Source: Escherichia coli
GTDB taxonomy: Bacteria > Pseudomonadota > Gammaproteobacteria > Enterobacterales > Enterobacteriaceae
NCBI RefSeq assembly: GCF_051903065.1
Contig: NZ_CP178438.1
DNA length: 64,000 bases
Reading direction: 5' to 3' (one strand)
Position 1 is the first letter of the stretch. Every line of letters begins with the position of its first letter. A program made the translations under genes and the position numbers. Shown piece after piece: positions 639-47,620 of this stretch. Below the pieces are notes generated by a model. That model was given only the letters and a program-made list of their open reading frames with translations. It made no database searches and was not told where the DNA came from.

Positions 639-1501
639 AACGATTTTCCTTTAACTTTATTCTTGATTTTTACAAGAAAAAGACATGTAATAAATAAAAC
701 GAAAACAGTAAATTTTGTCTTTTTCTTTACAACTATTAGATTACTAATATTAAAAATGGGAATAAAATGAAAAACGGTTTGTTTAATGACATTAATACCA
801 AGACCTTTTAGATTCAAGTTATTGATAACAAAAGCCATCGTGCCATTGATGTTTTTCCGCAAAAGATCAGTATAATTAGAAGTTAAACCTCCTGGTAAAT
901 ATTCACTATAATAGATGATCTCATTGAAATATTTAAAGTAGCCATTTTCTAAAATTGAATTCCAAACCAATGCCTCAGTTATAAAATTTTCACCATCAAA
1001 AACAGGAAATTGATTTTTAAGTAAAGAATCACGTTTTATGATTAATGCTTTATCTCCCTTTGTACCTGCAAACTTTTCCAGAGAAATATTTTCAATTGTT
1101 TCCGCTTTACCTACAATCTCTTTTGTAGTTTTATACCCCCTCAGGAAAACCATCCCTTTACATTTATCATCAACAATTGCCTGGATTTTTTCATTGGCTA
1201 GAGCAATAGCGTTGGGCGTTAATATATCATCACTATCAACAATAAATATCCAGTTAAACGACGAAATTTCTATCCCTATATTTAAGGCTGTGTGTTTTCC
1301 ACCGTTCTTCTTATATCTATATATGATTTTAAATGGGGATGTCGACGCTATTTTGTCAATAACCTCTTTTAAATTATCAGTAGAACCATCATCAATTATC
1401 ACCCATTCAAAATCATAAGATTGTTGTGACATTAAGGATTCATATAATTCATAGACTAACAAAGCTCGATTGAATACAGGAGTAATTACTGAAATTGACA
1501 T
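635..1501 (-). CDS. Family 2 glycosyltransferase (O-antigen cluster)
   Basis: 288-aa ORF; N-terminal ITPVFNRA...VIIDDGSTD and later DSDD motif typical of GT-A/GT2 enzymes; low GC; overlaps neighbours as in an operon. Confidence 0.75.
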   Translation of the reverse strand: MSISVITPVFNRALLVYELYESLMSQQSYDFEWVIIDDGSTDNLKEVIDKIASTSPFKIIYRYKKNGGKHTALNIGIEISSFNWIFIVDSDDILTPNAIALANEKIQAIVDDKCKGMVFLRGYKTTKEIVGKAETIENISLEKFAGTKGDKALIIKRDSLLKNQFPVFDGENFITEALVWNSILENGYFKYFNEIIYYSEYLPGGLTSNYTDLLRKNINGTMAFVINNLNLKGLGINVIKQTVFHFIPIFNISNLIVVKKKTKFTVFVLFITCLFLVKIKNKVKGKSL

Positions 1502-2793
1502 CTAACCCTTCCAAAATCATTAATCAAACGCCATGGGAAAATAATATACTTCAAACTCTGTAATTGCATTTTAAACATATTTTTAGTTTTTGGTATAAAT
1601 ATAAAAATCAAAAAGTTAGCAATAAAATAAGAAAGCAATGATACAGAAGCAGCGCCAACCGCTCCATATTTTGGTATAACAATGATATTCAAAGTTATAT
1701 TCAAAATTGCAGCAATAATGGTTTTTATCACTTCTAAATTAATATAATTCTTACTAAATAACCATTTAGATGAAAATGATCCTAAAAAAACAAAAACACC
1801 ACTCCACATATGAACCATTAATACTTGCGCCGATAAATCCATATTATCGCCATATAGTATTTTTATAATTATAGGTGACAGAGCAATCATAATAATTGCA
1901 CCATATATAGAGATTACACTTACAACTCCGCATATCCATTTCAAAAAGATAAATGATTCTTCCTCTCCTATTTTTTCAAGCTGAACAATTTTTGGAAAAA
2001 AAGCGTTCGCTATCAAACCTCCACACATAAACCAGATGGCTGATAACCTAAGAGCTGCACTAAATGCCCCAGCCTCTTTTGTACCTGTAAGAGACTCTAA
2101 TAAGATAACATCACACTGTGTAAATAGTGATACACTAATAGTTGATACAATGAGTTTACTCCCCATAAAAAAATACATTTTGACTAATTCTAAATCAATC
2201 GTCCATTTTGCTGAATAAGGGAAATAGAATTTGTATATAGTAAAACTAAAAAGAGCTTGAATTAAATAAAAGAAAACATAAGCATAAAAGACATACCAAC
2301 CAAAATATATACAACACCAAAGATAACCATATGAAACGGCCACACTACTTAGAATTGTGATAGCACGATATTTTGATTCAACCAATGCCGAATAATGAAA
2401 AAATATTACTTTAGCATACAAGCTAAAAAAATTAGCAACGATTAATATCGCCACGAATATAAAAGCGAACGGTATATCATAGTAAAAATAAATAACAATG
2501 GTAATAAAAGCAGATGCATATAATAACAGTCCTAAAAACTGTAAGAATAATGCACATCCAATCTCAGTGCCCGTTGATGATGGATTTTCAACAATTCTTT
2601 TAACTACGACTATATCAATGCCAAATAAAAATAACGATAGTAATATTTGTGAGATATTCATTATCGTTGCCCAACTACCCAAGATATCTAACCCATAGAT
2701 TCTTTTGATAGAAGCAAAAAGTGACAGCTGAAATACCAGCATGAACACTCGGTCACTCAACAACCAAAATAGGTTACTTAAGTATTTTTTCAC
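1486..2793 (-). CDS. wzx: O-antigen flippase Wzx (polysaccharide transporter family)
   Basis: 435-aa highly hydrophobic multi-span protein in an O-antigen operon; size and composition typical of Wzx. Confidence 0.7.
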   Translation of the reverse strand: MKKYLSNLFWLLSDRVFMLVFQLSLFASIKRIYGLDILGSWATIMNISQILLSLFLFGIDIVVVKRIVENPSSTGTEIGCALFLQFLGLLLYASAFITIVIYFYYDIPFAFIFVAILIVANFFSLYAKVIFFHYSALVESKYRAITILSSVAVSYGYLWCCIYFGWYVFYAYVFFYLIQALFSFTIYKFYFPYSAKWTIDLELVKMYFFMGSKLIVSTISVSLFTQCDVILLESLTGTKEAGAFSAALRLSAIWFMCGGLIANAFFPKIVQLEKIGEEESFIFLKWICGVVSVISIYGAIIMIALSPIIIKILYGDNMDLSAQVLMVHMWSGVFVFLGSFSSKWLFSKNYINLEVIKTIIAAILNITLNIIVIPKYGAVGAASVSLLSYFIANFLIFIFIPKTKNMFKMQLQSLKYIIFPWRLINDFGRVRCQFQ

Positions 2794-4858: not shown

Positions 4859-4871
4859 TAACGCTACCGCC
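4859..4871 (-). promoter_or_regulatory. ops element (RfaH-dependent antitermination site) within JUMPstart upstream of the O-antigen operon
   Basis: Plus strand reads acgctaccgcc, the reverse complement of GGCGGTAGCGT, followed by cctggcttt-agctacc JUMPstart-like sequence; lies in the 5-prime leader of the minus-strand operon. Confidence 0.7.
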
Positions 4872-5156
4872 CCTGGCTTTACAGCTACCAGAGCACTGCA
4901 TGCATGTCTACGATGTGACGAGCGTTACCCACTCGCGCTTAACTCGAAAAATTCAAACGCTAATTGTCTTACCAATCCGCTCTGGAAACAAGGAAAATCC
5001 TGGAAAACTTTGACTAAAATCCTATTGCTAACTCGTTGTTATTCTGATTGTTTATATAAAACAACGGCAGGAATATTCGCAACAAATTACTTTCGCCACG
5101 AATCCTCACTGCCGTTATAATTTTCTTATCAACCGTTACATCCGGTCAGATTTTCA

Positions 5157-7445: not shown

Positions 7446-8840
7446 CTACTCCCTCCGTTCCGGCAATCTAAAGTTAATCTTTTCCACATTAATAATATGG
7501 TGATTAACTCTGTCGATATCGACGGAGCTTTGCCCTTTTTCATTCACCGCATGAACATTTGCAAGAGATAGCAGTGTTTCTTTTTTCGCCATAAAGACGC
7601 CGCGAACGTCTTTGCGCATGTCAAAGTTCATGCTCAATGCGGGTCCAACAGAGGATTCCTGCATCACCTTGATATTACGCATAAAAAGATGTTGCGGTTT
7701 ATTGTGTAGCTCAAGCGACGCACGCTTCATCTCAATGTTAGTCAGTGCCACAAAGGAGACGGCATTCCCGGCGGAGATTTGGATGCCGCGCAATTTATAA
7801 GCAAGATGGGTGTTATCCAGTTGAATATTATTCACTCGGAAATTTTGCGGTATCGAGAGATATTTGCCTTTAATTACCCCATAGCCGATTAACATCCCGG
7901 CGCTATTAATCATTTCAATATTATCAATCACAAAATTGTCACAACCGTAAATAGCGACCGTCGCGTTATCAATACCTGCTTTCTTACTGAAATCCGGCGT
8001 GATATTGCGGGCTTTGATATTACGAATAACAAAATGTTTACCATTTTCAACATGGATCAACTGCCGACAATCCGATCCCGTGATATTCGCCACGACAAAG
8101 TTTTTCACTGCCTGATCTTCTGGGTAATTATTATCGTAAGTGCTTCCCGCAAGGCCTATGCCGATGCCCCAGTTGATTTTGCCGTTAGTACAGTTGATGC
8201 GCTCGATGACATGGTCGGAGATCAAAATATCACTGTCGTTAATTGCCACGTTCCATTCAATGGCGTCGCCCTGTAAGTCGCTGAACTTACAATTGGTGAT
8301 GTTGGCACCGATAATCTGGTTATGAAATCCCTGGCGTAAGATGGCGTAATTAGCGTGGCTAACGGTCAGGTTATCGATGGTCAGGTTGCGCATGACCCGT
8401 TTGTTTTTGCCGCCGATATAAATCTGCGTTACCGGACCAAAGCCGCTCATCGCCAGCCCTTTGATGGTGCAGTCAGAGCCACGCACATCCAGGGTGATGT
8501 TATGCATACTGCCGCCCTCCTCCCCTGTCACCTGGCTGCCGTCCTGTAAGACAAATCGCCCTCTGCCGTTGCCGCGCAGGCTTCCAAGGATGTGTAAAAT
8601 TTTACCGGGAGGGATAAAGATGCCGGTGTTGATATTGTCACAAACCAATCCGCCAGGCACGACGACCGTATGCCCTTCGCTGAAGGCTTGTTTAAATGAG
8701 GCGATCCAGTCGTGAGGGTTGTAGTCGTTAATGTTAACGCTTTGTCGGGCGGGAAGTGCGCGAGCAAAAGGGGTATGGAGGAAGGCAAGCGCGGAGCTTG
8801 CCGTCAGGAAGGTGCGTCGGGAGAGTTTTTTAAATGGCAT
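7446..8840 (-). CDS. wcaM: Colanic acid biosynthesis protein WcaM
   Basis: 464-aa ORF with signal-peptide-like N-terminus; last gene of the wca cluster; length matches K-12 WcaM. Confidence 0.9.
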
Positions 8841-11409: not shown

Positions 11410-11600
11410 GCCTGATGCGACGCTGGCGCGTCTTATCAGGCCTACAAGACCCGAGCACAGAACCGTAGGCCGGATAAGGCGTTCACGCCGCATCCGGCAT
11501 TCAGTGCCTGATGCGACGCTGACGCGTCTTATCAGGCCTACAGGTCCCGAGCACAGAACCGTAGGATGGATAAGGCGTTTTACGCTGCACCCGGCAACCG
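11410..11600. repeat. REP/BIME cluster (at least two REP units)
   Basis: Two copies of gcctgatgcgacgct..cgcgtcttatcaggcctac plus ggataaggcgtt-acgccgcatccgg units between wcaK and wzxC. Confidence 0.85.
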
Positions 11601-15923: not shown

Positions 15924-16012
15924 GTCGTTACCCTTTTTCAGGCAATAGTTGGCCCTGACCGAAGCGGCCAATTTTGTTTTTGTCGTTATTTACACCGCGG
16001 TTTCGCATTCAT

Positions 16013-30454: not shown

Positions 30455-30466
30455 CACGCTACCGCC
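30455..30466 (-). promoter_or_regulatory. ops element in the JUMPstart of the colanic-acid operon leader
   Basis: Plus strand cacgctaccgcc is the reverse complement of GGCGGTAGCGTG, followed by cctggctttttagctacc JUMPstart-like sequence, about 180 bp upstream of wza. Confidence 0.75.
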
Positions 30467-30678
30467 CCTGGCTTTTTAGCTACCAATACACTGATTTAGC
30501 TTAATTTTTAAAACCCTCTCAACATACAGTCGTTGATGAGAAAGGGTTATTGCGGAAATTAACTTCCGAATATAAGGTGACATTATGGTAATTGAATATT
30601 GGCTCTCCAATAATGCAGGAGGAAGTGTTACAGCTAACGGAATAGCAGGCAAGGTAACAATTCGGCAATTGGCTATTT

Positions 30679-30934: not shown

Positions 30935-32518
30935 ATGGAATGGATTGCCGATCCGTCTATCTGGGCCGGGTTAATCACGCTGATTGTGATCGAACTGGTC
31001 CTCGGCATTGATAACCTAGTCTTTATTGCCATCCTCGCCGAAAAACTACCGCCGAAGCAGCGCGACCGCGCACGGGTTACCGGGCTGTTGCTGGCGATGT
31101 TAATGCGCCTGTTACTGCTGGCGTCAATCTCCTGGCTGGTCACCCTGACTCAACCGCTATTCAGCTTTCGCTCGTTTACCTTTAGCGCCCGCGACTTAAT
31201 CATGCTGTTTGGTGGTTTCTTCTTGTTGTTCAAAGCCACGATGGAGCTGAACGAACGGCTGGAAGGGAAAGACAGCAATAACCCCACGCAACGCAAAGGT
31301 GCGAAGTTCTGGGGCGTGGTGACACAAATTGTGGTACTGGACGCCATCTTCTCACTCGACTCGGTGATTACAGCCGTCGGGATGGTCGACCATTTACTGG
31401 TCATGATGGCCGCCGTGGTTATCGCTATCAGCCTGATGTTGATGGCCAGCAAGCCGTTAACGCAATTTGTTAACAGTCACCCGACCATCGTTATTCTCTG
31501 CTTAAGCTTCCTGTTGATGATTGGCTTTAGCCTGGTGGCGGAAGGTTTCGGCTTCGTCATTCCGAAAGGCTACCTGTACGCTGCCATTGGTTTCTCGGTG
31601 ATGATCGAGGCGCTCAATCAGTTGGCTATCTTTAACCGGCGACGTTTTCTTTCCGCTAACCAGACGCTGCGCCAGCGGACTACCGAAGCGGTAATGCGCC
31701 TGCTTAGCGGGCAAAAAGAAGATGCGGAACTGGACGCCGAAACCGCGTCCATGCTGGTGGATCATGGTAACCAGCAGATCTTTAATCCGCAGGAACGGCG
31801 GATGATTGAGCGGGTACTTAATCTTAACCAGCGTACCGTCAGCAGCATTATGACGTCGCGCCACGATATTGAGCATATCGATCTCAACGCGCCGGAAGAA
31901 GAAATCCGCCAGTTGCTGGAGCGAAATCAGCATACGCGGCTGGTGGTTACCGACGGTGATGACGCAGAAGATTTGCTCGGTGTTGTTCACGTTATCGACC
32001 TGCTACAACAGTCTCTGCGCGGCGAACCGCTCAACCTGCGGGTGTTGATTCGCCAGCCGCTGGTGTTCCCGGAAACCTTGCCGTTGTTACCTGCCCTGGA
32101 GCAGTTCCGTAATGCCCGCACGCACTTTGCTTTTGTGGTGGATGAGTTTGGCTCGGTGGAAGGGATTGTGACATTAAGTGACGTCACTGAAACCATTGCC
32201 GGTAACTTACCGAACGAAGTGGAAGAGATCGACGCCCGCCATGATATTCAGAAGAATGCGGACGGTTCCTGGACGGCGAATGGTCATATGCCGCTGGAAG
32301 ATCTGGTGCAATATGTGCCGCTGCCGCTGGATGAAAAACGTGAATATCACACCATTGCCGGGCTGTTGATGGAGTATTTGCAGCGTATTCCAAAACCTGG
32401 CGAAGAAGTTCAGGTAGGGGATTATTTGCTTAAAACGTTGCAGGTAGAAAGCCATCGCGTGCAGAAGGTGCAGATTATACCGCTGCGTAAGGATGGCGAG
32501 ATGGAGTACGAGGTGTGA
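30935..32518 (+). CDS. yegH: Inner-membrane protein YegH (TerC-family membrane domain plus CBS/CorC-type domains)
   Basis: Track ORF is 549 aa; likely start [13 protein letters not shown]... (527 aa). Confidence 0.88.
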
Positions 32519-32780
32519 TGGTATCGGTCATTTTACCCGATGCTGCGTAACGCCTTATAACTTCAGCAATGAAGCGTTGTCTGTGGTACATGGACATTAC
32601 AGCGGGGGGGTGGGTCCGGCTGTAAATCGCCGAATCGTTTCCTGTGGCCGGGGCAGCCCACATGGATGTGGGCTGAGGGCGCGTTTTACAGGGATAATGA
32701 GATGGACGCTCCAGATTTTACGGTATCAAAGTACCAGACTGGATCGTTGCAATACGTCCTGAAAAATTAGGAGCGTCCAC

Positions 32781-33806
32781 ATGAAAGTATCAACTCTTGG
32801 TATCGACCTGGCAAAGAACGTTTTTCAGCTTCATGGTGTCGATCATGAAGGCCATACTATTTTGCGTAAAAAGCTCACCCGGGCTAAGTTTGTTCAGTTT
32901 GTGATTCAACTGGAACCTTGTCTGATTGGCATGGAAGCCTGCTCATCCAGTCATTATTTTGCGCGATTATTCACCCGCTATGGTCATGAGGTAAAACTCA
33001 TACCTCCGCAGTATGTGAAGCCTTATGTGAAAACGAACAAGACGGATGCAGCAGATGCTGAAGCAATCTGCGAAGCGGTAACCCGTCCGAATATGCGTTT
33101 TGTTCAGATAAAAAACGAAGAGCAGCAGGCCGTTTTAGCGTTACACACTGAACGGGGAATACTTATCCGTGAGCGGATTGCCTGTGCCAATAGTTTAAGA
33201 GCCACACTTGCTGAGTTTGGTATTACGATTGCGGCCGGACAAAGCCATTTAACCCGTGAGCTGCCAGCCATTCTGGAGGATAGCGAAAATGGTTTATCTC
33301 CCTTTGTCAGAACCAGCATCTACAGACAGTCTAAACATATCCGGGAACTTGAAGAACAAGTTAAACAGGTAGAAGAAGCTCTGGCCTCCTGGTATAGAAC
33401 GCAGGAAGCCTGCCAGAGAATGGCCAAAATCCCGGGGGTTGGCATGCTAACGGCCACTTATGTGGTAGCAGCAGTGGGTAATGCCCGACAATTCAGTACC
33501 GCAAAGCAGTTCGCTTCATGGCTGGGGCTGACACCAAAGGAACATTCCAGCGGCGGGAAACAGCAACTGGGAGGGATCAGCAAACGTGGAGATGGATATT
33601 TCCGATACCTGCTGGTTCACGGCGCACGCGCACTTACCGCCTGGGTCAACCGAAACGGCGCGGTTGAGGAGAATTCCTGGCTTCAGGGACTCCTTGAGCG
33701 GAAGCACTACAATGTAGCTGTTGTCGCCATGGCGGCAAAAACAGCGAGGATCATGTGGTCAATGTTGTCACACAATACTGAATATCAACCTCGGCAGCTC
33801 GCCTGA
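32781..33806 (+). CDS. IS110-family transposase/recombinase (DEDD N-terminal domain plus Transposase_20 C-terminal domain)
   Basis: 341-aa ORF: N-terminal MKVSTLGIDLAKNVFQLHGVD and C-terminal IPGVGMLTA...GLTPKEHSSGGKQQLGGISKRGDGYFR motifs characteristic of IS110-family recombinases. Confidence 0.85.
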   Translation: MKVSTLGIDLAKNVFQLHGVDHEGHTILRKKLTRAKFVQFVIQLEPCLIGMEACSSSHYFARLFTRYGHEVKLIPPQYVKPYVKTNKTDAADAEAICEAVTRPNMRFVQIKNEEQQAVLALHTERGILIRERIACANSLRATLAEFGITIAAGQSHLTRELPAILEDSENGLSPFVRTSIYRQSKHIRELEEQVKQVEEALASWYRTQEACQRMAKIPGVGMLTATYVVAAVGNARQFSTAKQFASWLGLTPKEHSSGGKQQLGGISKRGDGYFRYLLVHGARALTAWVNRNGAVEENSWLQGLLERKHYNVAVVAMAAKTARIMWSMLSHNTEYQPRQLA

Positions 33807-33839
33807 CACAAGGTCAGTCAATCTGACGAGGTGCTGAAA

Positions 33840-34060
33840 AAAAGTTAACGTCCTGGTAGGTGCAGGTGACTTCAGAAGATGGCAAAACAGGTAAGACCGC
33901 AGGCAGGATACACCGAGAGGTAACAAGGGCAAGTTAGCCCGTAGAGGATGATTGGTACCTGCCTGGCGGATTTCATCATGGTTCGGGATAAAAATCCCAT
34001 CAGAAACCGGATATATGGCTGCACCTACCCGTTTTATTACATAACTGAAGAAAGCATTGC
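33840..34060 (+). ncRNA. Candidate IS110-family guide RNA (bridge/seek-type) in the 3-prime non-coding flank
   Basis: No ORF; long-range complementary 11-mers ggtaggtgcag (33855-33865) and ctgcacctacc (34021-34031) plus internal helices; inferred by analogy with IS1111-group elements. Speculative. Confidence 0.3.
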
Positions 34061-34297
34061 ATTCCGGGAGCGTCCATATATGTTACCTCGTGCCCGTACC
34101 CGATAGCCGCAAGGAATAAGATGAGGGAACCGCGCCAGCGGCGATTTACCGCCGGGAGCCCGGGTTGCCAGGGTGGTGGCGATTGAGCCACCCTGGCACG
34201 TTCACCGGCTTGAGCCTTCCATAGTAGCGAGGAACATCAAGTGAACGGAACAGCCTTCGATCTTACATATTCAGAATATAATGGTGCCGCCGCGAAC

Positions 34298-34336
34298 GCC
34301 TGATGCGACGCTTTACGCGTCTTATCAGGCCTACAG
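34298..34336. repeat. REP element
   Basis: gcctgatgcgacgctttacgcgtcttatcaggcctac just downstream of the asmA stop. Confidence 0.85.
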
Positions 34337-34354
34337 GACAGCTCACCAGGTAAC

Positions 34355-36208
34355 CTACATCTTCTCCAGCAACTTCTTCACATCTTTGCCATTGCGGGAA
34401 TCTTTATTCCGCTCGGCCCAGTCATTCAGGCGACGTTTCGCTTCGTCCTGTAGATGTTTGCGCAGCAGCTGGTCCACTTGCAGGCTGTAATTGAGTTGCT
34501 GCCAGTTGCCATAAACCCGCAGCGGTACTGGCGTTTCTTTGAGGAAATCAATCAGTTTACTTTCCCCGTTCCAGCCACCCACGACCCGAATATCAAACTG
34601 GGTGTCGCAGGTTTGATCTGCCAGATTCAACATGCCTTCCCCTGTCAACGCCAGCACAGGCGATTGACCTTGCATGTCGTTTAACGTCACGACGCCATCC
34701 TTCAACGTCAAATCGGTGGTAAAGCGGTCAAGACGCGTTACGTTATCGAAGTTTTCAGCGGCCTTCACATCACCACCATTACGTTCTACCGCTTGCTGAA
34801 TCATCTGCTGGAAGTTCATCCCTTGCATGCGCGTATCGGCCATTTCGACATGCGCCGTCCCCTGCCAGTTGTGGCGGAATGCGTCGGCATCTATGTCAGC
34901 ACCGGAGAAATCACCAGCCAGTGACATCTTTCCGGTCAACGAAATCGGATAGTTAAACGCCTTCAGAATGGTGCCAATCTCAACGTTTTCCAGCCGTGGC
35001 TGAAAGTTTATCCGCGGATTTATTGATGTCGCGTCCAGCGTGCCCGGCAGTGAAACCTGTCCACCGTTAAGTTTGCCCTGCAGTTGAGTAATTTCCAGCA
35101 AACCCGACTTGTTGGTCATTTGCGTGGCAACATCTGTAAAATTCATTCCGCGCCAGCGCACGTTACTGGCCTGCAACAAAATATCAGCCGTAAAGCCTTG
35201 CAGTCCCTGATAGGCCGGTTCATCAATACGCGAAGAAATAACCGGGCGCGGCAACGTTGATTGGCTCTGCCCCTGCTGCGCGGCACCGTTTTCACCATTC
35301 GCGGTTTCATTAAGCGGGATGAGGTTGTCAAGATTCAGTTGCGGGAATTGCAGTCTCAGCTGCCATTCCGGTTTCTCTGTCAGCGTGACCTGTGCTTGCC
35401 CGCTCAGCGTACTATCATTGGCGGTCAAACTAATTTGGTTAAATGAAAGGCGTTTATGTGACTCCTGCCACTGGGCCAGGAAACTCCCCTGCCCCTGAAT
35501 ACCTTGTTTTGGTAAATCGGCACCCTGCAACTGCCAGTTAATTTGTTCAATAGCCGCCGTTAAATCATGCGGATAATCAGAAGCATCTACCGTACCGTTA
35601 AGGGATATCGTGAGATCGCGCTGATCGCGATTAACCCGCCCGGAGAACTCAAATGAGCCACGATGTTGGGGATCTTGTTCCATTTGCAGGCGGATATTGC
35701 GGATTGTCACCTGCTCGTCATCTTCATGCTGGAACACCAGAACGCTGTCCGCCACCTTAAGACTGGATATATCAAACGACCATCCGCGATCGTCTGACAG
35801 ATCCGGCAAGGTATTGTCGCGCGGTGCAACCGGAGCGTCTTCACTGCGCACCGCTTCCGTCTGCGGCGTCAGTTGGATCACTGCCCCTTTTAGCATCACC
35901 TGCTTAACGCTCAGTTGATGACTCAGTAGTGGTAAAAGCGCCACGTCCAGACGCATGTTATCGGCGCGAACCAGTGGCTGGCTTGCGCCCTGGGCGGTGA
36001 GAGACATTCGCCCGGAGAGGATACTAAGCTGCGGCCAGACGTGCCAACGCAGTGGCCCGTCGAGCTGCAATTGATAACCGCTACGTGCAGCAACTTGCTT
36101 GACCATATAGTCGCGGAAATCATTCGGATTCACCAGCAACACTAACGCAGATAACCCGGCCACCAGCACGACCAGGAGTATCATCAGCGTCGTCAGAAAT
36201 CGTCTCAT
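34355..36208 (-). CDS. asmA: Outer-membrane assembly protein AsmA
   Basis: 617-aa ORF with N-terminal membrane anchor; position and length as in K-12. Confidence 0.9.
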   Translation of the reverse strand: MRRFLTTLMILLVVLVAGLSALVLLVNPNDFRDYMVKQVAARSGYQLQLDGPLRWHVWPQLSILSGRMSLTAQGASQPLVRADNMRLDVALLPLLSHQLSVKQVMLKGAVIQLTPQTEAVRSEDAPVAPRDNTLPDLSDDRGWSFDISSLKVADSVLVFQHEDDEQVTIRNIRLQMEQDPQHRGSFEFSGRVNRDQRDLTISLNGTVDASDYPHDLTAAIEQINWQLQGADLPKQGIQGQGSFLAQWQESHKRLSFNQISLTANDSTLSGQAQVTLTEKPEWQLRLQFPQLNLDNLIPLNETANGENGAAQQGQSQSTLPRPVISSRIDEPAYQGLQGFTADILLQASNVRWRGMNFTDVATQMTNKSGLLEITQLQGKLNGGQVSLPGTLDATSINPRINFQPRLENVEIGTILKAFNYPISLTGKMSLAGDFSGADIDADAFRHNWQGTAHVEMADTRMQGMNFQQMIQQAVERNGGDVKAAENFDNVTRLDRFTTDLTLKDGVVTLNDMQGQSPVLALTGEGMLNLADQTCDTQFDIRVVGGWNGESKLIDFLKETPVPLRVYGNWQQLNYSLQVDQLLRKHLQDEAKRRLNDWAERNKDSRNGKDVKKLLEKM

Positions 36209-46989: not shown

Positions 46990-47164
46990 AAGAAATCATT
47001 TCTTAGAGAATTATTGAGGTCCGGTATCATACCGACTGCAATAATGAAATAAGAGCAAACGAAGAAACTTTCAGAATTAGTCCCGGCGGCGCAGAAAATT
47101 TTGCTATTCGCCTCGCAAGAACGGAGAGCCGTCGATTGACACTAAGGGCGGAGTGACATAATTT

Positions 47165-47315
47165 CAGGAGTGAGGGTTAGGGAAAGGTTTCCCCCTCCCC
47201 CTGGTGTTCTTAGTAAGCCTGGAAGCTAATCACTAAGAGTATCACCAGTATGATGACGTGCTTCATCATAACCCTTTCCTTATTTAAGGCCCCTTCCTCG
47301 GGAGGGGCTTTCCCG
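47165..47315 (+). ncRNA. sibA: SibA antisense sRNA (antitoxin to ibsA); ends approximate
   Basis: ttgaca / cataat promoter-like elements around 47139-47163; antisense to ibsA; GC hairpin ccccttcctcgggaggggc followed by a T-rich run. Confidence 0.55.
47210..47269 (-). CDS. ibsA: Type I toxin IbsA (19 aa hydrophobic peptide)
   Basis: Minus-strand translation gives MMKHVIILVILLVISFQAY with an AAGGG Shine-Dalgarno-like sequence upstream. Confidence 0.8.
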   Translation of the reverse strand: MMKHVIILVILLVISFQAY

Positions 47316-47499
47316 TTTCAGCATCCCGCTGAAATCGTCGGCTTACCTCCTTTCGCCATGCATGCAGTCTATCGCTGACTTGCGGATAAAATAGTTTCCA
47401 GTGTGATTATTGCGTAACGTCTCGCAAAGAATATTTGCTGGCAGGATCGCAGACTGCAAAGCCTGCAGATTGACAATCTGACCGTGAAGGCATACTTTC

Positions 47500-47620
47500 A
47501 GGAGTGAGGGTTGAGCGGGGTTTCCCCCGCCCTGGTAGTCTTAGTAAGCTGGCCAGCTAATGACTAAGAGCACCACGATGATGAGTAGCTTCATCATGAC
47601 CCTTTTCTTATTAAAGGATG
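47500..47620 (+). ncRNA. sibB: SibB antisense sRNA, apparently lacking its native 3-prime hairpin
   Basis: ttgaca / catact promoter-like elements at about 47471-47497; homology with the sibA copy stops near 47618. Confidence 0.45.
47541..47597 (-). CDS. ibsB: Type I toxin IbsB-like (18 aa hydrophobic peptide)
   Basis: Minus-strand translation gives MMKLLIIVVLLVISWPAY; paralogous to ibsA. Confidence 0.75.
   Translation of the reverse strand: MMKLLIIVVLLVISWPAY

Follow-up and report, generated by a model that had tools for sequence, protein, structure and literature searches.

A conserved hairpin between yegH and asmA of Escherichia coli is native chromosomal DNA and one helix of a dispersed repeat split by an IS1111-type element

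Results

The yegH–asmA region

The DNA analysed, referred to here as the window, is a 64-kb stretch of E. coli sequence. In it, the convergent genes yegH and asmA are separated by a spacer that contains an insertion sequence (IS), the two halves of a structured repeat on either side of the IS, and a REP palindrome (Table 1).

Table 1. Features of the yegH–asmA region, in window coordinates.
Feature	Position	Strand	Basis
yegH, TerC-family protein, left flank	30935..32518	+	RefSeq annotation of the 100%-identical NZ_AP045789.1; ORF list
Repeat 5' half, left of the IS	32599..32695	+	G5 colinear to 32695; Rfam match of the G5 copy; consensus fold
P1, 5' strand	~32611-32632	+	within repeat 5' half
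GGA hairpin 1, loop AUGGAU	32654-32675	+	within repeat 5' half
GGA hairpin 2, 5' arm, and loop up to the AT core	32677-32683 (arm); 32684-32695 (loop)	+	within repeat 5' half
IS1111-type IS, IS110 family, 1384 bp, AT on each side (32694-32695, 34080-34081)	32696..34079	+	
IS left subterminal inverted repeat ATGGACGCTCC	32702..32712	+	reverse complement of 34067-34077
IS transposase gene, 341 aa, DEDD type	32781..33806	+	PF01548, PF02371; RefSeq name
IS non-coding region 3' of the transposase gene, expected place of the guide (seek/bridge) RNA	33807..34079	+	
IS right subterminal inverted repeat GGAGCGTCCAT	34067..34077	+	sequence
Repeat 3' half, right of the IS, starting with the AT core	34080..34251	+	G5 colinear from 34080; covariance model
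GGA hairpin 2, 3' arm	34089-34095	+	within repeat 3' half
P1, 3' strand, taking in the mini-hairpin sequence	34139-34155	+	within repeat 3' half
P5+P6 module	34156-34251	+	covariance model, 107.8 bits, E 3.8e-21
Flagged hairpin, helix P5, 11-12 bp stem, loop GGCGAUUGA	34166..34198	+	sequence, fold, covariation, K-12 3' ends
Helix P6, CGTTCAC 34199-34205 / GTGAACG 34241-34247, ~35-nt variable region inside	34199..34247	+	RNAalifold; covariation
Classic REP palindrome	34298..34334	+	sub-threshold naRNA4 match; spacer comparison
asmA, right flank, convergent with yegH	34355..36208	-	ORF list, RefSeq annotation

The hairpin to which an earlier note had drawn attention is as described there, with a perfect 11-bp stem formed by tgccagggtgg (34166–34176) and ccaccctggca (34188–34198), an 11-nt loop, tggcgattgag (34177–34187), and no adjacent T-run on either strand. 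A T-G pair between 34177 and 34187 can lengthen the stem to 12 bp, the loop then being 9 nt long. On the + strand, the 71-nt region around the hairpin has a folding energy of −37.9 kcal/mol (z −2.83); for the − strand the value is −35.3 kcal/mol (z −2.71). Although the surrounding DNA is GC-rich, the chance that this is a random inverted repeat without significance is negligible. The pattern of the two arms, with up to three mismatches allowed, occurs once in the window and not at all in 100 dinucleotide-preserving shuffles; compensatory changes preserve the hairpin across 44 distinct copies, which come from several genera, and RNA 3' ends of K-12 map to its base (both described below). A 21-codon open reading frame running over the hairpin (ATG at 34121, MREPRQRRFTAGSPGCQGGGD) was rejected, as neither its start codon nor its frame is kept in paralogous copies.

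The hairpin lies outside the insertion sequence

The yegH–asmA spacer is polymorphic among the 5426 complete E. coli genomes used for comparison, and the spacer of strain G5 served as the IS-free reference. Window positions 32400–34450 are 100% identical to strain 23CRST027, in which yegH, an 'IS110 family RNA-guided transposase' and asmA are annotated. G5 aligns to 32100–32695 and to 34080–34750, and the two alignments overlap by a 2-bp AT. The inserted DNA is 32696–34079 (1384 bp) plus the duplicated AT core.

The first base of the hairpin is 87 bp past the right end of the IS. The earlier note had left its assignment undecided between an IS-encoded RNA and the chromosome, proposing that IS-free spacers be inspected; those of G5, 21AR0133 and MG1655 all contain the hairpin, which therefore belongs to the chromosome. 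A 189-bp segment with the hairpin is present in 4582 of the 5426 genomes and the IS in only 179, at least 4400 genomes having the segment without any copy of this IS. Comparison of spacer variants revealed no case of the hairpin being confined to IS-adjacent sites, and no IS-free spacer that lacks 34082–34251 yet keeps the remaining right flank. The hairpin is native chromosomal DNA, intact beside the IS.

If the hairpin were part of the seekRNA or bridge RNA of the IS, the element would have to reach to about 34200. The non-coding region of IS1111-type elements does sit downstream of the transposase gene, which is the side of the hairpin (PMC11187229), and an 8-nt sequence, CCGGGAGC, is common to the right end of the IS (34064–34071) and to 34152–34159, next to the hairpin. 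However, the empty site of G5 sets the right end at 34079, or at 34081 if the AT core is counted, full-length IS copies in the 179 genomes match up to query base 1384 and not past it, and the hairpin is found both in the genomes without this IS and in paralogous copies far from any IS. An IS-encoded origin can thus be set aside with near certainty. The assignment of the hairpin does decide where the right end of the IS lies, as the earlier note had anticipated; for this window the IS boundary is settled (32696–34079) and the hairpin is host DNA.

The hairpin is helix P5 of a dispersed structured repeat

As helix P5, the hairpin forms part of the 3' module of a repeat of about 275 nt that is dispersed in Enterobacteriaceae. 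Paralogues, around 75–86% identical, are located downstream of proX (proX–ygaY), between lysO and aqpZ, between yohP and dusC, downstream of alx (alx–sstT) and on a plasmid. E. coli K-12 has two intact copies (lysO–aqpZ, at about 914990–915326 of NC_000913.3 on the + strand, and yohP–dusC, at 2229115–2229386 on the − strand), while its yegH–asmA copy is truncated and has one substitution in the loop. A scan of one genome per species with the pattern AGCGGCGATTT N22-42 GGCGAYTG found the family in E. coli, E. albertii, Enterobacter, Lelliottia, Leclercia and Pseudocitrobacter, a range that is a lower bound. The pattern was too loose and the scan noisy. In Enterobacter, the same scan gave at least 5–7 copies per genome. 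Among the matches listed, most of the at least 120 pattern matches are chance occurrences or belong to an unrelated Lawsonibacter repeat, and part of the seeming invariance of the two motifs comes from the pattern itself.

The architecture of the repeat consists of two hairpins with GGA in the loop (ACAUGGAUGU and ACAGGGAUGU), enclosed by a long P1 stem, followed on the 3' side by the P5+P6 module. The first loop, AUGGAU, fits AYGGAY, while the second, AGGGAU, has a G in place of the Y. P1 comprises about 25 bp in the minimum-free-energy fold of the G5 copy, and its pairs show GC/CG and AU/UA swaps. The pairing of its 3' strand with the distant 5' strand is likewise backed by GC/CG swaps. This bears on the ccggg-agc-ccgg mini-hairpin reported in the earlier note: the sequence is present at 34152–34163, but it is probably not an independent hairpin, because in uninterrupted copies the segment is the 3' strand of P1, whose partner (around 32611–32632) lies to the left of the IS.

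The Rfam model TwoAYGGAY (RF01731) aligns over its whole length (1–168) to the uninterrupted G5 copy with 31.5 bits (E 0.012), and end to end to the other three full-length E. coli copies with 28.2–30.6 bits, all four being below the gathering cut-off of 43. The match ends at position 664 of the G5 locus sequence (L001), equivalent to window position 34148; the hairpin is 18 nt further 3' and outside the model. No Rfam family was matched by the P5+P6 module. In Pseudocitrobacter, a second element beside a family member scores 49.2 bits on RF01731, above the cut-off, and has on its 3' side a P5-like hairpin, whose stem is altogether different (GCGAAGGGGGGC / GCCCCCCTTTGC), and then the same P6. 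The 3' module is thereby linked to genuine TwoAYGGAY RNAs.

The TwoAYGGAY RNA motif was described by Weinberg et al. 2010 (PMC2864571), with a P1 that is often about 24 bp long; in their alignment AGGGAY loops occur too, and Psychromonas has several intergenic copies per genome. The E. coli repeat shares with it the two adjacent GGA-loop hairpins, the very long closing P1 and the presence of several intergenic copies per genome. It differs in that the E. coli copies score less than the gathering threshold, in the G of loop 2 where the name of the motif requires a Y, and in the position of the flagged hairpin, in a P5+P6 module 3' of the Rfam model. The repeat is probably a diverged relative of the TwoAYGGAY RNA.

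At the three K-12 loci nothing is annotated, nor is any copy annotated in the records examined. Scans for sigma-70-like promoters and for canonical terminators around three intact copies gave results not above shuffle expectation. Papers found under old names of E. coli repeats (RSA, Box C, IRU, BIME) were not relevant to the repeat, and its sequences did not occur in the literature searched for them.

The insertion sequence targets the loop of GGA hairpin 2

The transposase of the IS contains the domains PF01548 (E 2.1e-15) and PF02371 (E 1.1e-24) and is named 'IS110 family RNA-guided transposase' in RefSeq. Its gene is preceded by 85 bp and followed by 273 bp of non-coding DNA. Names of protein clusters yield only 'IS110 family transposase', and no more specific name for the IS was obtained from them. 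The element occurs at 339 places in the 179 genomes, full-length copies matching query bases 1–1384.

At eight loci (the window and seven others), distributed over three separate copies of the repeat (at yegH, lysO/aqpZ and yohP/dusC), the junctions are identical, reading ...TTTTACAGGGAT, the IS and ATGTTACCTCGCGCC..., and the orientation of the IS relative to the repeat is constant. The IS enters the repeat within the loop of GGA hairpin 2 (...UUACAGGGAU^GUUACC...). The IS has thus split the TwoAYGGAY-like repeat by site-specific insertion into this loop, parting the 5' strand of P1, hairpin 1 and half of hairpin 2 (32599–32695) from the remainder (34080–34251). The insertion moved the two halves 1.4 kb apart and left the P5 hairpin intact. 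Within the non-coding region of the IS, GAGGTAACA (33917–33925) is identical to the bottom strand of the target, TGTTACCTC; a match of 9 nt has a chance expectation of around 10%, and is no more than suggestive.

The layout of IS1111-type elements has been described for ISEc11, ISPa11 and ISKpn4 (PMC11187229), and the bridge RNA of IS110 elements for IS621 (PMC11208160). The element in the window resembles these guide-RNA elements in its DEDD transposase, its 11-bp subterminal inverted repeats, its 273-bp downstream non-coding region, its fixed orientation and its insertion at one precise point of a repeated target that forms a hairpin. The choice of target parallels that of ISPa11, which inserts in REPs, and ISKpn4, which inserts in attC sites, but here the target is the GGA hairpin loop of a TwoAYGGAY-like repeat, and the flagged hairpin is no part of the IS. 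In the literature searched, no paper linking TwoAYGGAY with an IS was found.

The fold of the repeat is conserved and probably selected on one strand

The uninterrupted G5 element is predicted to fold with −121.7 kcal/mol (z −5.33), and the RNAalifold consensus of the family contains 64 pairs, 21 of them with compensatory changes. In the underlying MAFFT alignment the flagged hairpin was mis-registered, because two subfamilies differ by an indel; its arms were aligned by hand from the loop outward, and later by a covariance model. In the hand registration, 92.7% of the P5 cells are paired, compared to 72.8% in shuffles (none of 500 reaching the observed value) and 38–55% in slid registers, and 8 of the 12 pairs are changed on both sides.

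The covariance model covers the P5+P6 module (96 nt); 12 gapless sequences were used to build it. A search of 875 kb with it gave 45 matches, all in loci of the family and including the window, and none in around 60 unrelated control loci. In the resulting alignment of 44 distinct rows, which is fitted to the structure of the model and whose rows include paralogues and related strains and are not independent, the share of paired cells is 96.0% in P5, where 10 of the 12 pairs vary on both sides, and 97.4% in P6, where all seven pairs do so. The controls for this alignment gave 78% paired overall for shuffled columns and 35–48% for slid registers.

Over the predicted helices, G-U cells outnumber A-C cells by 75 to 5. 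The + strand has the lower consensus energy, −72.5 kcal/mol as against −64.4 kcal/mol for the − strand, and its fold is the more stable one in 24 of 27 sequences. This asymmetry and the lower folding energies suggest that selection has acted on the repeat in the form of a folded single strand, of + polarity (the direction of yegH), most simply an RNA.

RNA 3' ends map to the base of the hairpin in K-12

The curated dominant Term-seq 3' ends of MG1655 were published by Adams et al. 2021 (supplementary file 1; PMC7815308). One of them is at 2139566 on the − strand, present in two of the three conditions (scores 42363 and 31838), and another at 2139607 on the + strand, present in all three (scores 2740–4207) (PMC7815308). 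The hairpin occupies 2139570–2139602 in K-12; the distance from the stem to the 3' end beyond it is 4 nt for the asmA direction (−) and 5 nt for the yegH direction (+). These ends correspond to window positions 34162 (−) and 34203 (+), although the data are from K-12, not from the window strain, and pertain to the truncated copy with its one loop substitution. Supplementary file 2 of the same study reports a Rho termination region at 2139476 on the − strand (Rho score 7.69, significance 1.1e-18), which is around 90 nt past the K-12 stem along the asmA transcript; transcripts terminated by Rho are typically processed by 3'-to-5' exonucleases (PMC7815308). The location of this bicyclomycin-sensitive region downstream of the stem shows that polymerase gets past it.

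Canonical intrinsic terminators of E. coli need a U-run. A stem as strong and GC-rich as this one, between convergent genes and with dominant RNA 3' ends 4–5 nt after it on both strands, might be taken for a bidirectional factor-independent terminator that works without such a tract, but trimming to the stem predicts the same 3' ends. Furthermore, a U-run is absent on both strands, the Rho region shows read-through in the asmA direction, and the helix is kept in copies whose flanking genes are not convergent. A terminator scan of the IS-free G5 spacer (L001 positions 380–900), which has the same hairpin, found none. The hairpin is not a canonical intrinsic terminator, and we regard termination of the unorthodox kind as unlikely.

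Most likely, we infer, the role of the hairpin is that of an exonuclease-blocking stem that fixes the 3' ends of transcripts. Transcription would pass the P5 stem and, in the asmA direction, be terminated by Rho some 90 nt beyond it; the RNA would then be trimmed by 3'-to-5' exonucleases to a point 4–5 nt from the base of the stem. Being located in a convergent spacer, the stem would block exonucleases, and set transcript ends, in both directions. Trimming to a stable stem is the best-supported mechanism, because there is no U-tract and transcription reads through past the stem. In the window strain, the hairpin lies between asmA and the IS and could still cap asmA transcripts; yegH transcripts would meet the IS first.

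The Term-seq tables contain no 3' end for either of the intact K-12 copies (lysO–aqpZ and yohP–dusC), so the capping may be local and need not explain why the helix is conserved. The stronger 3' end in K-12 is on the − strand, whereas selection at the level of the family points to the + strand. This mismatch suggests that the 3'-end role may be a by-product of any stable stem, and not the reason for the conservation of the helix.

The hairpin is not a REP element

The REP consensus is a palindrome of the GCCKGATGCGRCG...CGYCTTATCMGGCCTAC type. The earlier note had considered a native REP-like structure; the hairpin is native, as its presence in IS-free spacers indicates, but it is not REP-like, as its sequence bears no resemblance to the REP consensus and its related places number one to ten per genome. 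More precisely, a genome has 1–5 such places if the 189-bp segment is counted and as many as 10 if the whole element is, compared to hundreds of REPs in an E. coli genome. The true REP of the spacer is a separate sequence around 100 bp beyond the hairpin, invariant in all spacer variants including the minimal spacer of DS566; over 34259–34331 there is a sub-threshold match (33.1 bits) to naRNA4, the Rfam family of a REP-derived RNA.

Like REP/BIME palindromes and other hairpins that stabilise mRNA 3' ends, the flagged hairpin is an extragenic, GC-rich stem between convergent genes, here even adjoining a true REP. RNA 3' ends a few nt past the stem, with no U-tract, are also what is seen with stabilisers of the REP type, and fit exonuclease trimming after Rho termination (PMC7815308). 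For it to be a REP or BIME palindrome acting on DNA (through gyrase, IHF or RAYT), or a generic REP stabiliser of mRNA, is nevertheless highly improbable. It has another sequence and a copy number tens to hundreds of times lower, it is always one fixed helix of a larger structured unit of about 275 nt, and the G-U/A-C asymmetry shows strand-specific selection across that unit.

Discussion

Taking the evidence together, we are fairly confident that the hairpin is the native P5 helix of a TwoAYGGAY-like repeat split by an IS, and that its stem caps convergent transcripts. Such capping would explain two 'orphan' Term-seq 3' ends in the yegH–asmA spacer of K-12.

To our knowledge, no function has become known for the TwoAYGGAY RNA since 2010. 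In the repeat, the loop of hairpin 2, UUACAGGGAUGU, agrees in 11 of 12 positions with RUACARGGAUGU, the CsrA SELEX consensus, and hairpin 1 agrees in 9 of 12; both are on the repeat and not in the flagged hairpin. The string RUACARGGAUGU occurs in papers including PMC2896534, and TwoAYGGAY has been proposed as a CsrA-binding RNA (PMC4333381). The P5 helix might thus be a structural part of a trans-acting RNA of the TwoAYGGAY class, for example one that titrates CsrA, and in the window an orphaned remnant of an element inactivated by the IS. The selection on the + strand and the separation of P1, the two hairpins and the 3' module by the IS would be in line with this. On the other side, no evidence of CsrA binding or expression of the repeat was found in the literature searched or in CLIP tables near two copies, dusC and ybjE being marked 'No' in a table of CsrA CLIP and transcriptomics (supplementary file 4; PMC5694010); around the intact copies no promoter-like sites were found, and at those of K-12 no Term-seq ends are listed. 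We hold a trans-acting role to be possible, if rather doubtful. It is compatible with P5 being a capping stem, the two not being mutually exclusive.

Compared to the CsrA-sequestering RNAs CsrB and CsrC, the repeat also presents GGA in hairpin loops, and the loop of hairpin 2 fits the high-affinity CsrA consensus almost perfectly. It has two such hairpins, as opposed to around 9–22 sites, its binding of CsrA is a prediction from sequence, and the flagged hairpin itself does not have a GGA loop.

More speculatively, enterobacterial TwoAYGGAY elements, including those at lysO–aqpZ and yohP–dusC of K-12, may be modular RNAs composed of a 5' CsrA-binding domain and a protective P5+P6 module. They would at the same time be a dedicated landing pad for an RNA-guided transposase of the IS1111 family, each insertion being a natural knock-out that cuts the high-affinity CsrA site, and the IS copies driving megabase inversions around the terminus. 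This combined picture is tentative and rather doubtful. The use of the repeat as a target of the IS is observed at the junctions, while the CsrA-binding and functional-RNA part is conjectural.

The hairpin alone is of modest interest; its context, in which an unannotated structured repeat of K-12 is the specific target of an RNA-guided IS, is moderately so. A GGA hairpin loop in a structured repeat is a natural class of target for an RNA-guided IS1111-type transposase, which is of interest for the study and engineering of bridge- and seek-RNA recombinases. K-12 has close, intact relatives of TwoAYGGAY, with a 3' module that extends beyond the Rfam model, making it a tractable organism in which the proposed binding of CsrA may be addressed.

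Alleles of the yegH-asmA spacer

Comparison of the yegH-asmA spacer (window 32519-34354) with loci L002, L003 and L004 and with matches H26-H29 distinguishes at least five alleles. Strain G5 contains the dispersed repeat in intact form, while the K-12 form is without its left half, owing to a deletion between the 8-bp direct repeats TACCCGAT and TACCCAAT. In 21AR0133 the core enclosed by the long closing stem P1 is absent, with the flagged hairpin (P5) and the next helix (P6) retained, and the DS566 allele is minimal, containing only a REP. Further forms contain genes for a RelE/ParE toxin with its HTH antitoxin: in O157 the pair is intact, whereas L014-L016 have a relE pseudogene located downstream of the repeat split by the IS.

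The 8-mer CCGGGAGC is found twice, once at the IS right end and once within the element that the earlier note called a mini-hairpin, beside P5. Its occurrence at both places is probably due to chance, although this doubling may give the false impression of a longer IS. Other RNA families in the window, matched at the Rfam gathering score, are included in the table; one of the two JUMPstart elements lies on the strand opposite to that of yegH, a short distance upstream of the gene.

Positions of sequence motifs, paired repeat copies and RNA families
Feature	Location	Position (strand)	Remark
CCGGGAGC, IS right end	window	34064-34071	
CCGGGAGC, mini-hairpin	window	34152-34159	
P5 loop GGCGAUUGA	window	34177-34187	
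P1 3' strand GGCGAUUU	window	34140-34147	
P1 5' strand AAAUCGCC	window	32624-32631	
Repeat pair	L092	1862-2137 (-), 2170-2429 (+)	back-to-back
Repeat pair	L119 (ENT03)	8000-8209 (-), 8347-8623 (+)	back-to-back
Repeat pair	L011 (E. coli plasmid)	1414-1507 (-), 1508-1602 (+)	3' modules (P5 + P6) abutting
Sib antitoxin RNA (two)	window	47136-47284, 47470-47612	Rfam gathering score
naRNA4 (REP-derived)	window	11468-11538	Rfam gathering score
algC RNA	window	15928-15977	Rfam gathering score
JUMPstart (two)	window	4860-4898, 30455-30493	Rfam gathering score

Variation, pairing and insertion in the 3' module

The loop of P5 repeats the sequence of the P1 3' strand and could therefore serve as an alternative partner of the P1 5' strand. 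The seeming invariance of the two motifs is in part an artefact of the search pattern, and the copies from MG1655 (GGAGAUUGA) and from the plasmid (GGCGGUGA) deviate. Among the Enterobacter sp. ENT03 loci (L117-L123), the repeat scaffold is near-identical between copies of the one genome and the P6 interior, about 35 nt, is strongly divergent; this interior apparently folds into a small stem-loop whose stem varies and whose loop is GTTNTTC-like.

In Enterobacter sp. MGH 24, the loop of the P5 homologue of locus L054 (GGCGAT^TGAGCC) contains an inserted IS3-like element, about 1.44 kb long, with TG...CA ends, terminal inverted repeats of 25 bp and a 3-bp duplication, GAT. A second copy, L051, has the same left junction, the locus being too short for the remainder to be visible, and in the third, L053, a residual 54 bp from the IS ends is found at this position. 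The loop of the P5 homologue is therefore likewise a recurrent insertion site.

Orientation of repeat copies and rearrangement between loci

In the yohP-dusC spacer, the repeat has opposite orientations in MS10858 (L010) and MG1655 (L142). The yohP and dusC flanks are identical, but the sequence directly around the repeat is not alike, and about 30 nt of additional flanking sequence in MS10858 is also present beside the lysO-aqpZ copy. One simple inversion does not account for this arrangement. Adjacent family members on opposite strands were also observed, in Pseudocitrobacter, in ENT03 and on an E. coli plasmid; the pairs of L092 and of the ENT03 loci stand back-to-back, and those of the plasmid (L011) meet at their 3' modules. 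In two cases an E. coli copy follows closely after a TerC-family gene, yegH (window 30935-32518) in one and alx (L007 1388-2353) in the other, which may be a coincidence.

Junction comparison revealed a lysO / IS / yohP-mdtQ arrangement in L017 and L018, and a dusC / IS / aqpZ arrangement in L019. In each case the flanks come from two separate repeat loci, whose K-12 positions are about 0.915 Mb and 2.229 Mb; the interval between them is estimated to be roughly symmetric around the replication terminus. The two junction types, which come from different strains, are those expected as the reciprocal product pair of an inversion of about 1.3 Mb between inverted copies of the IS or of the repeat.
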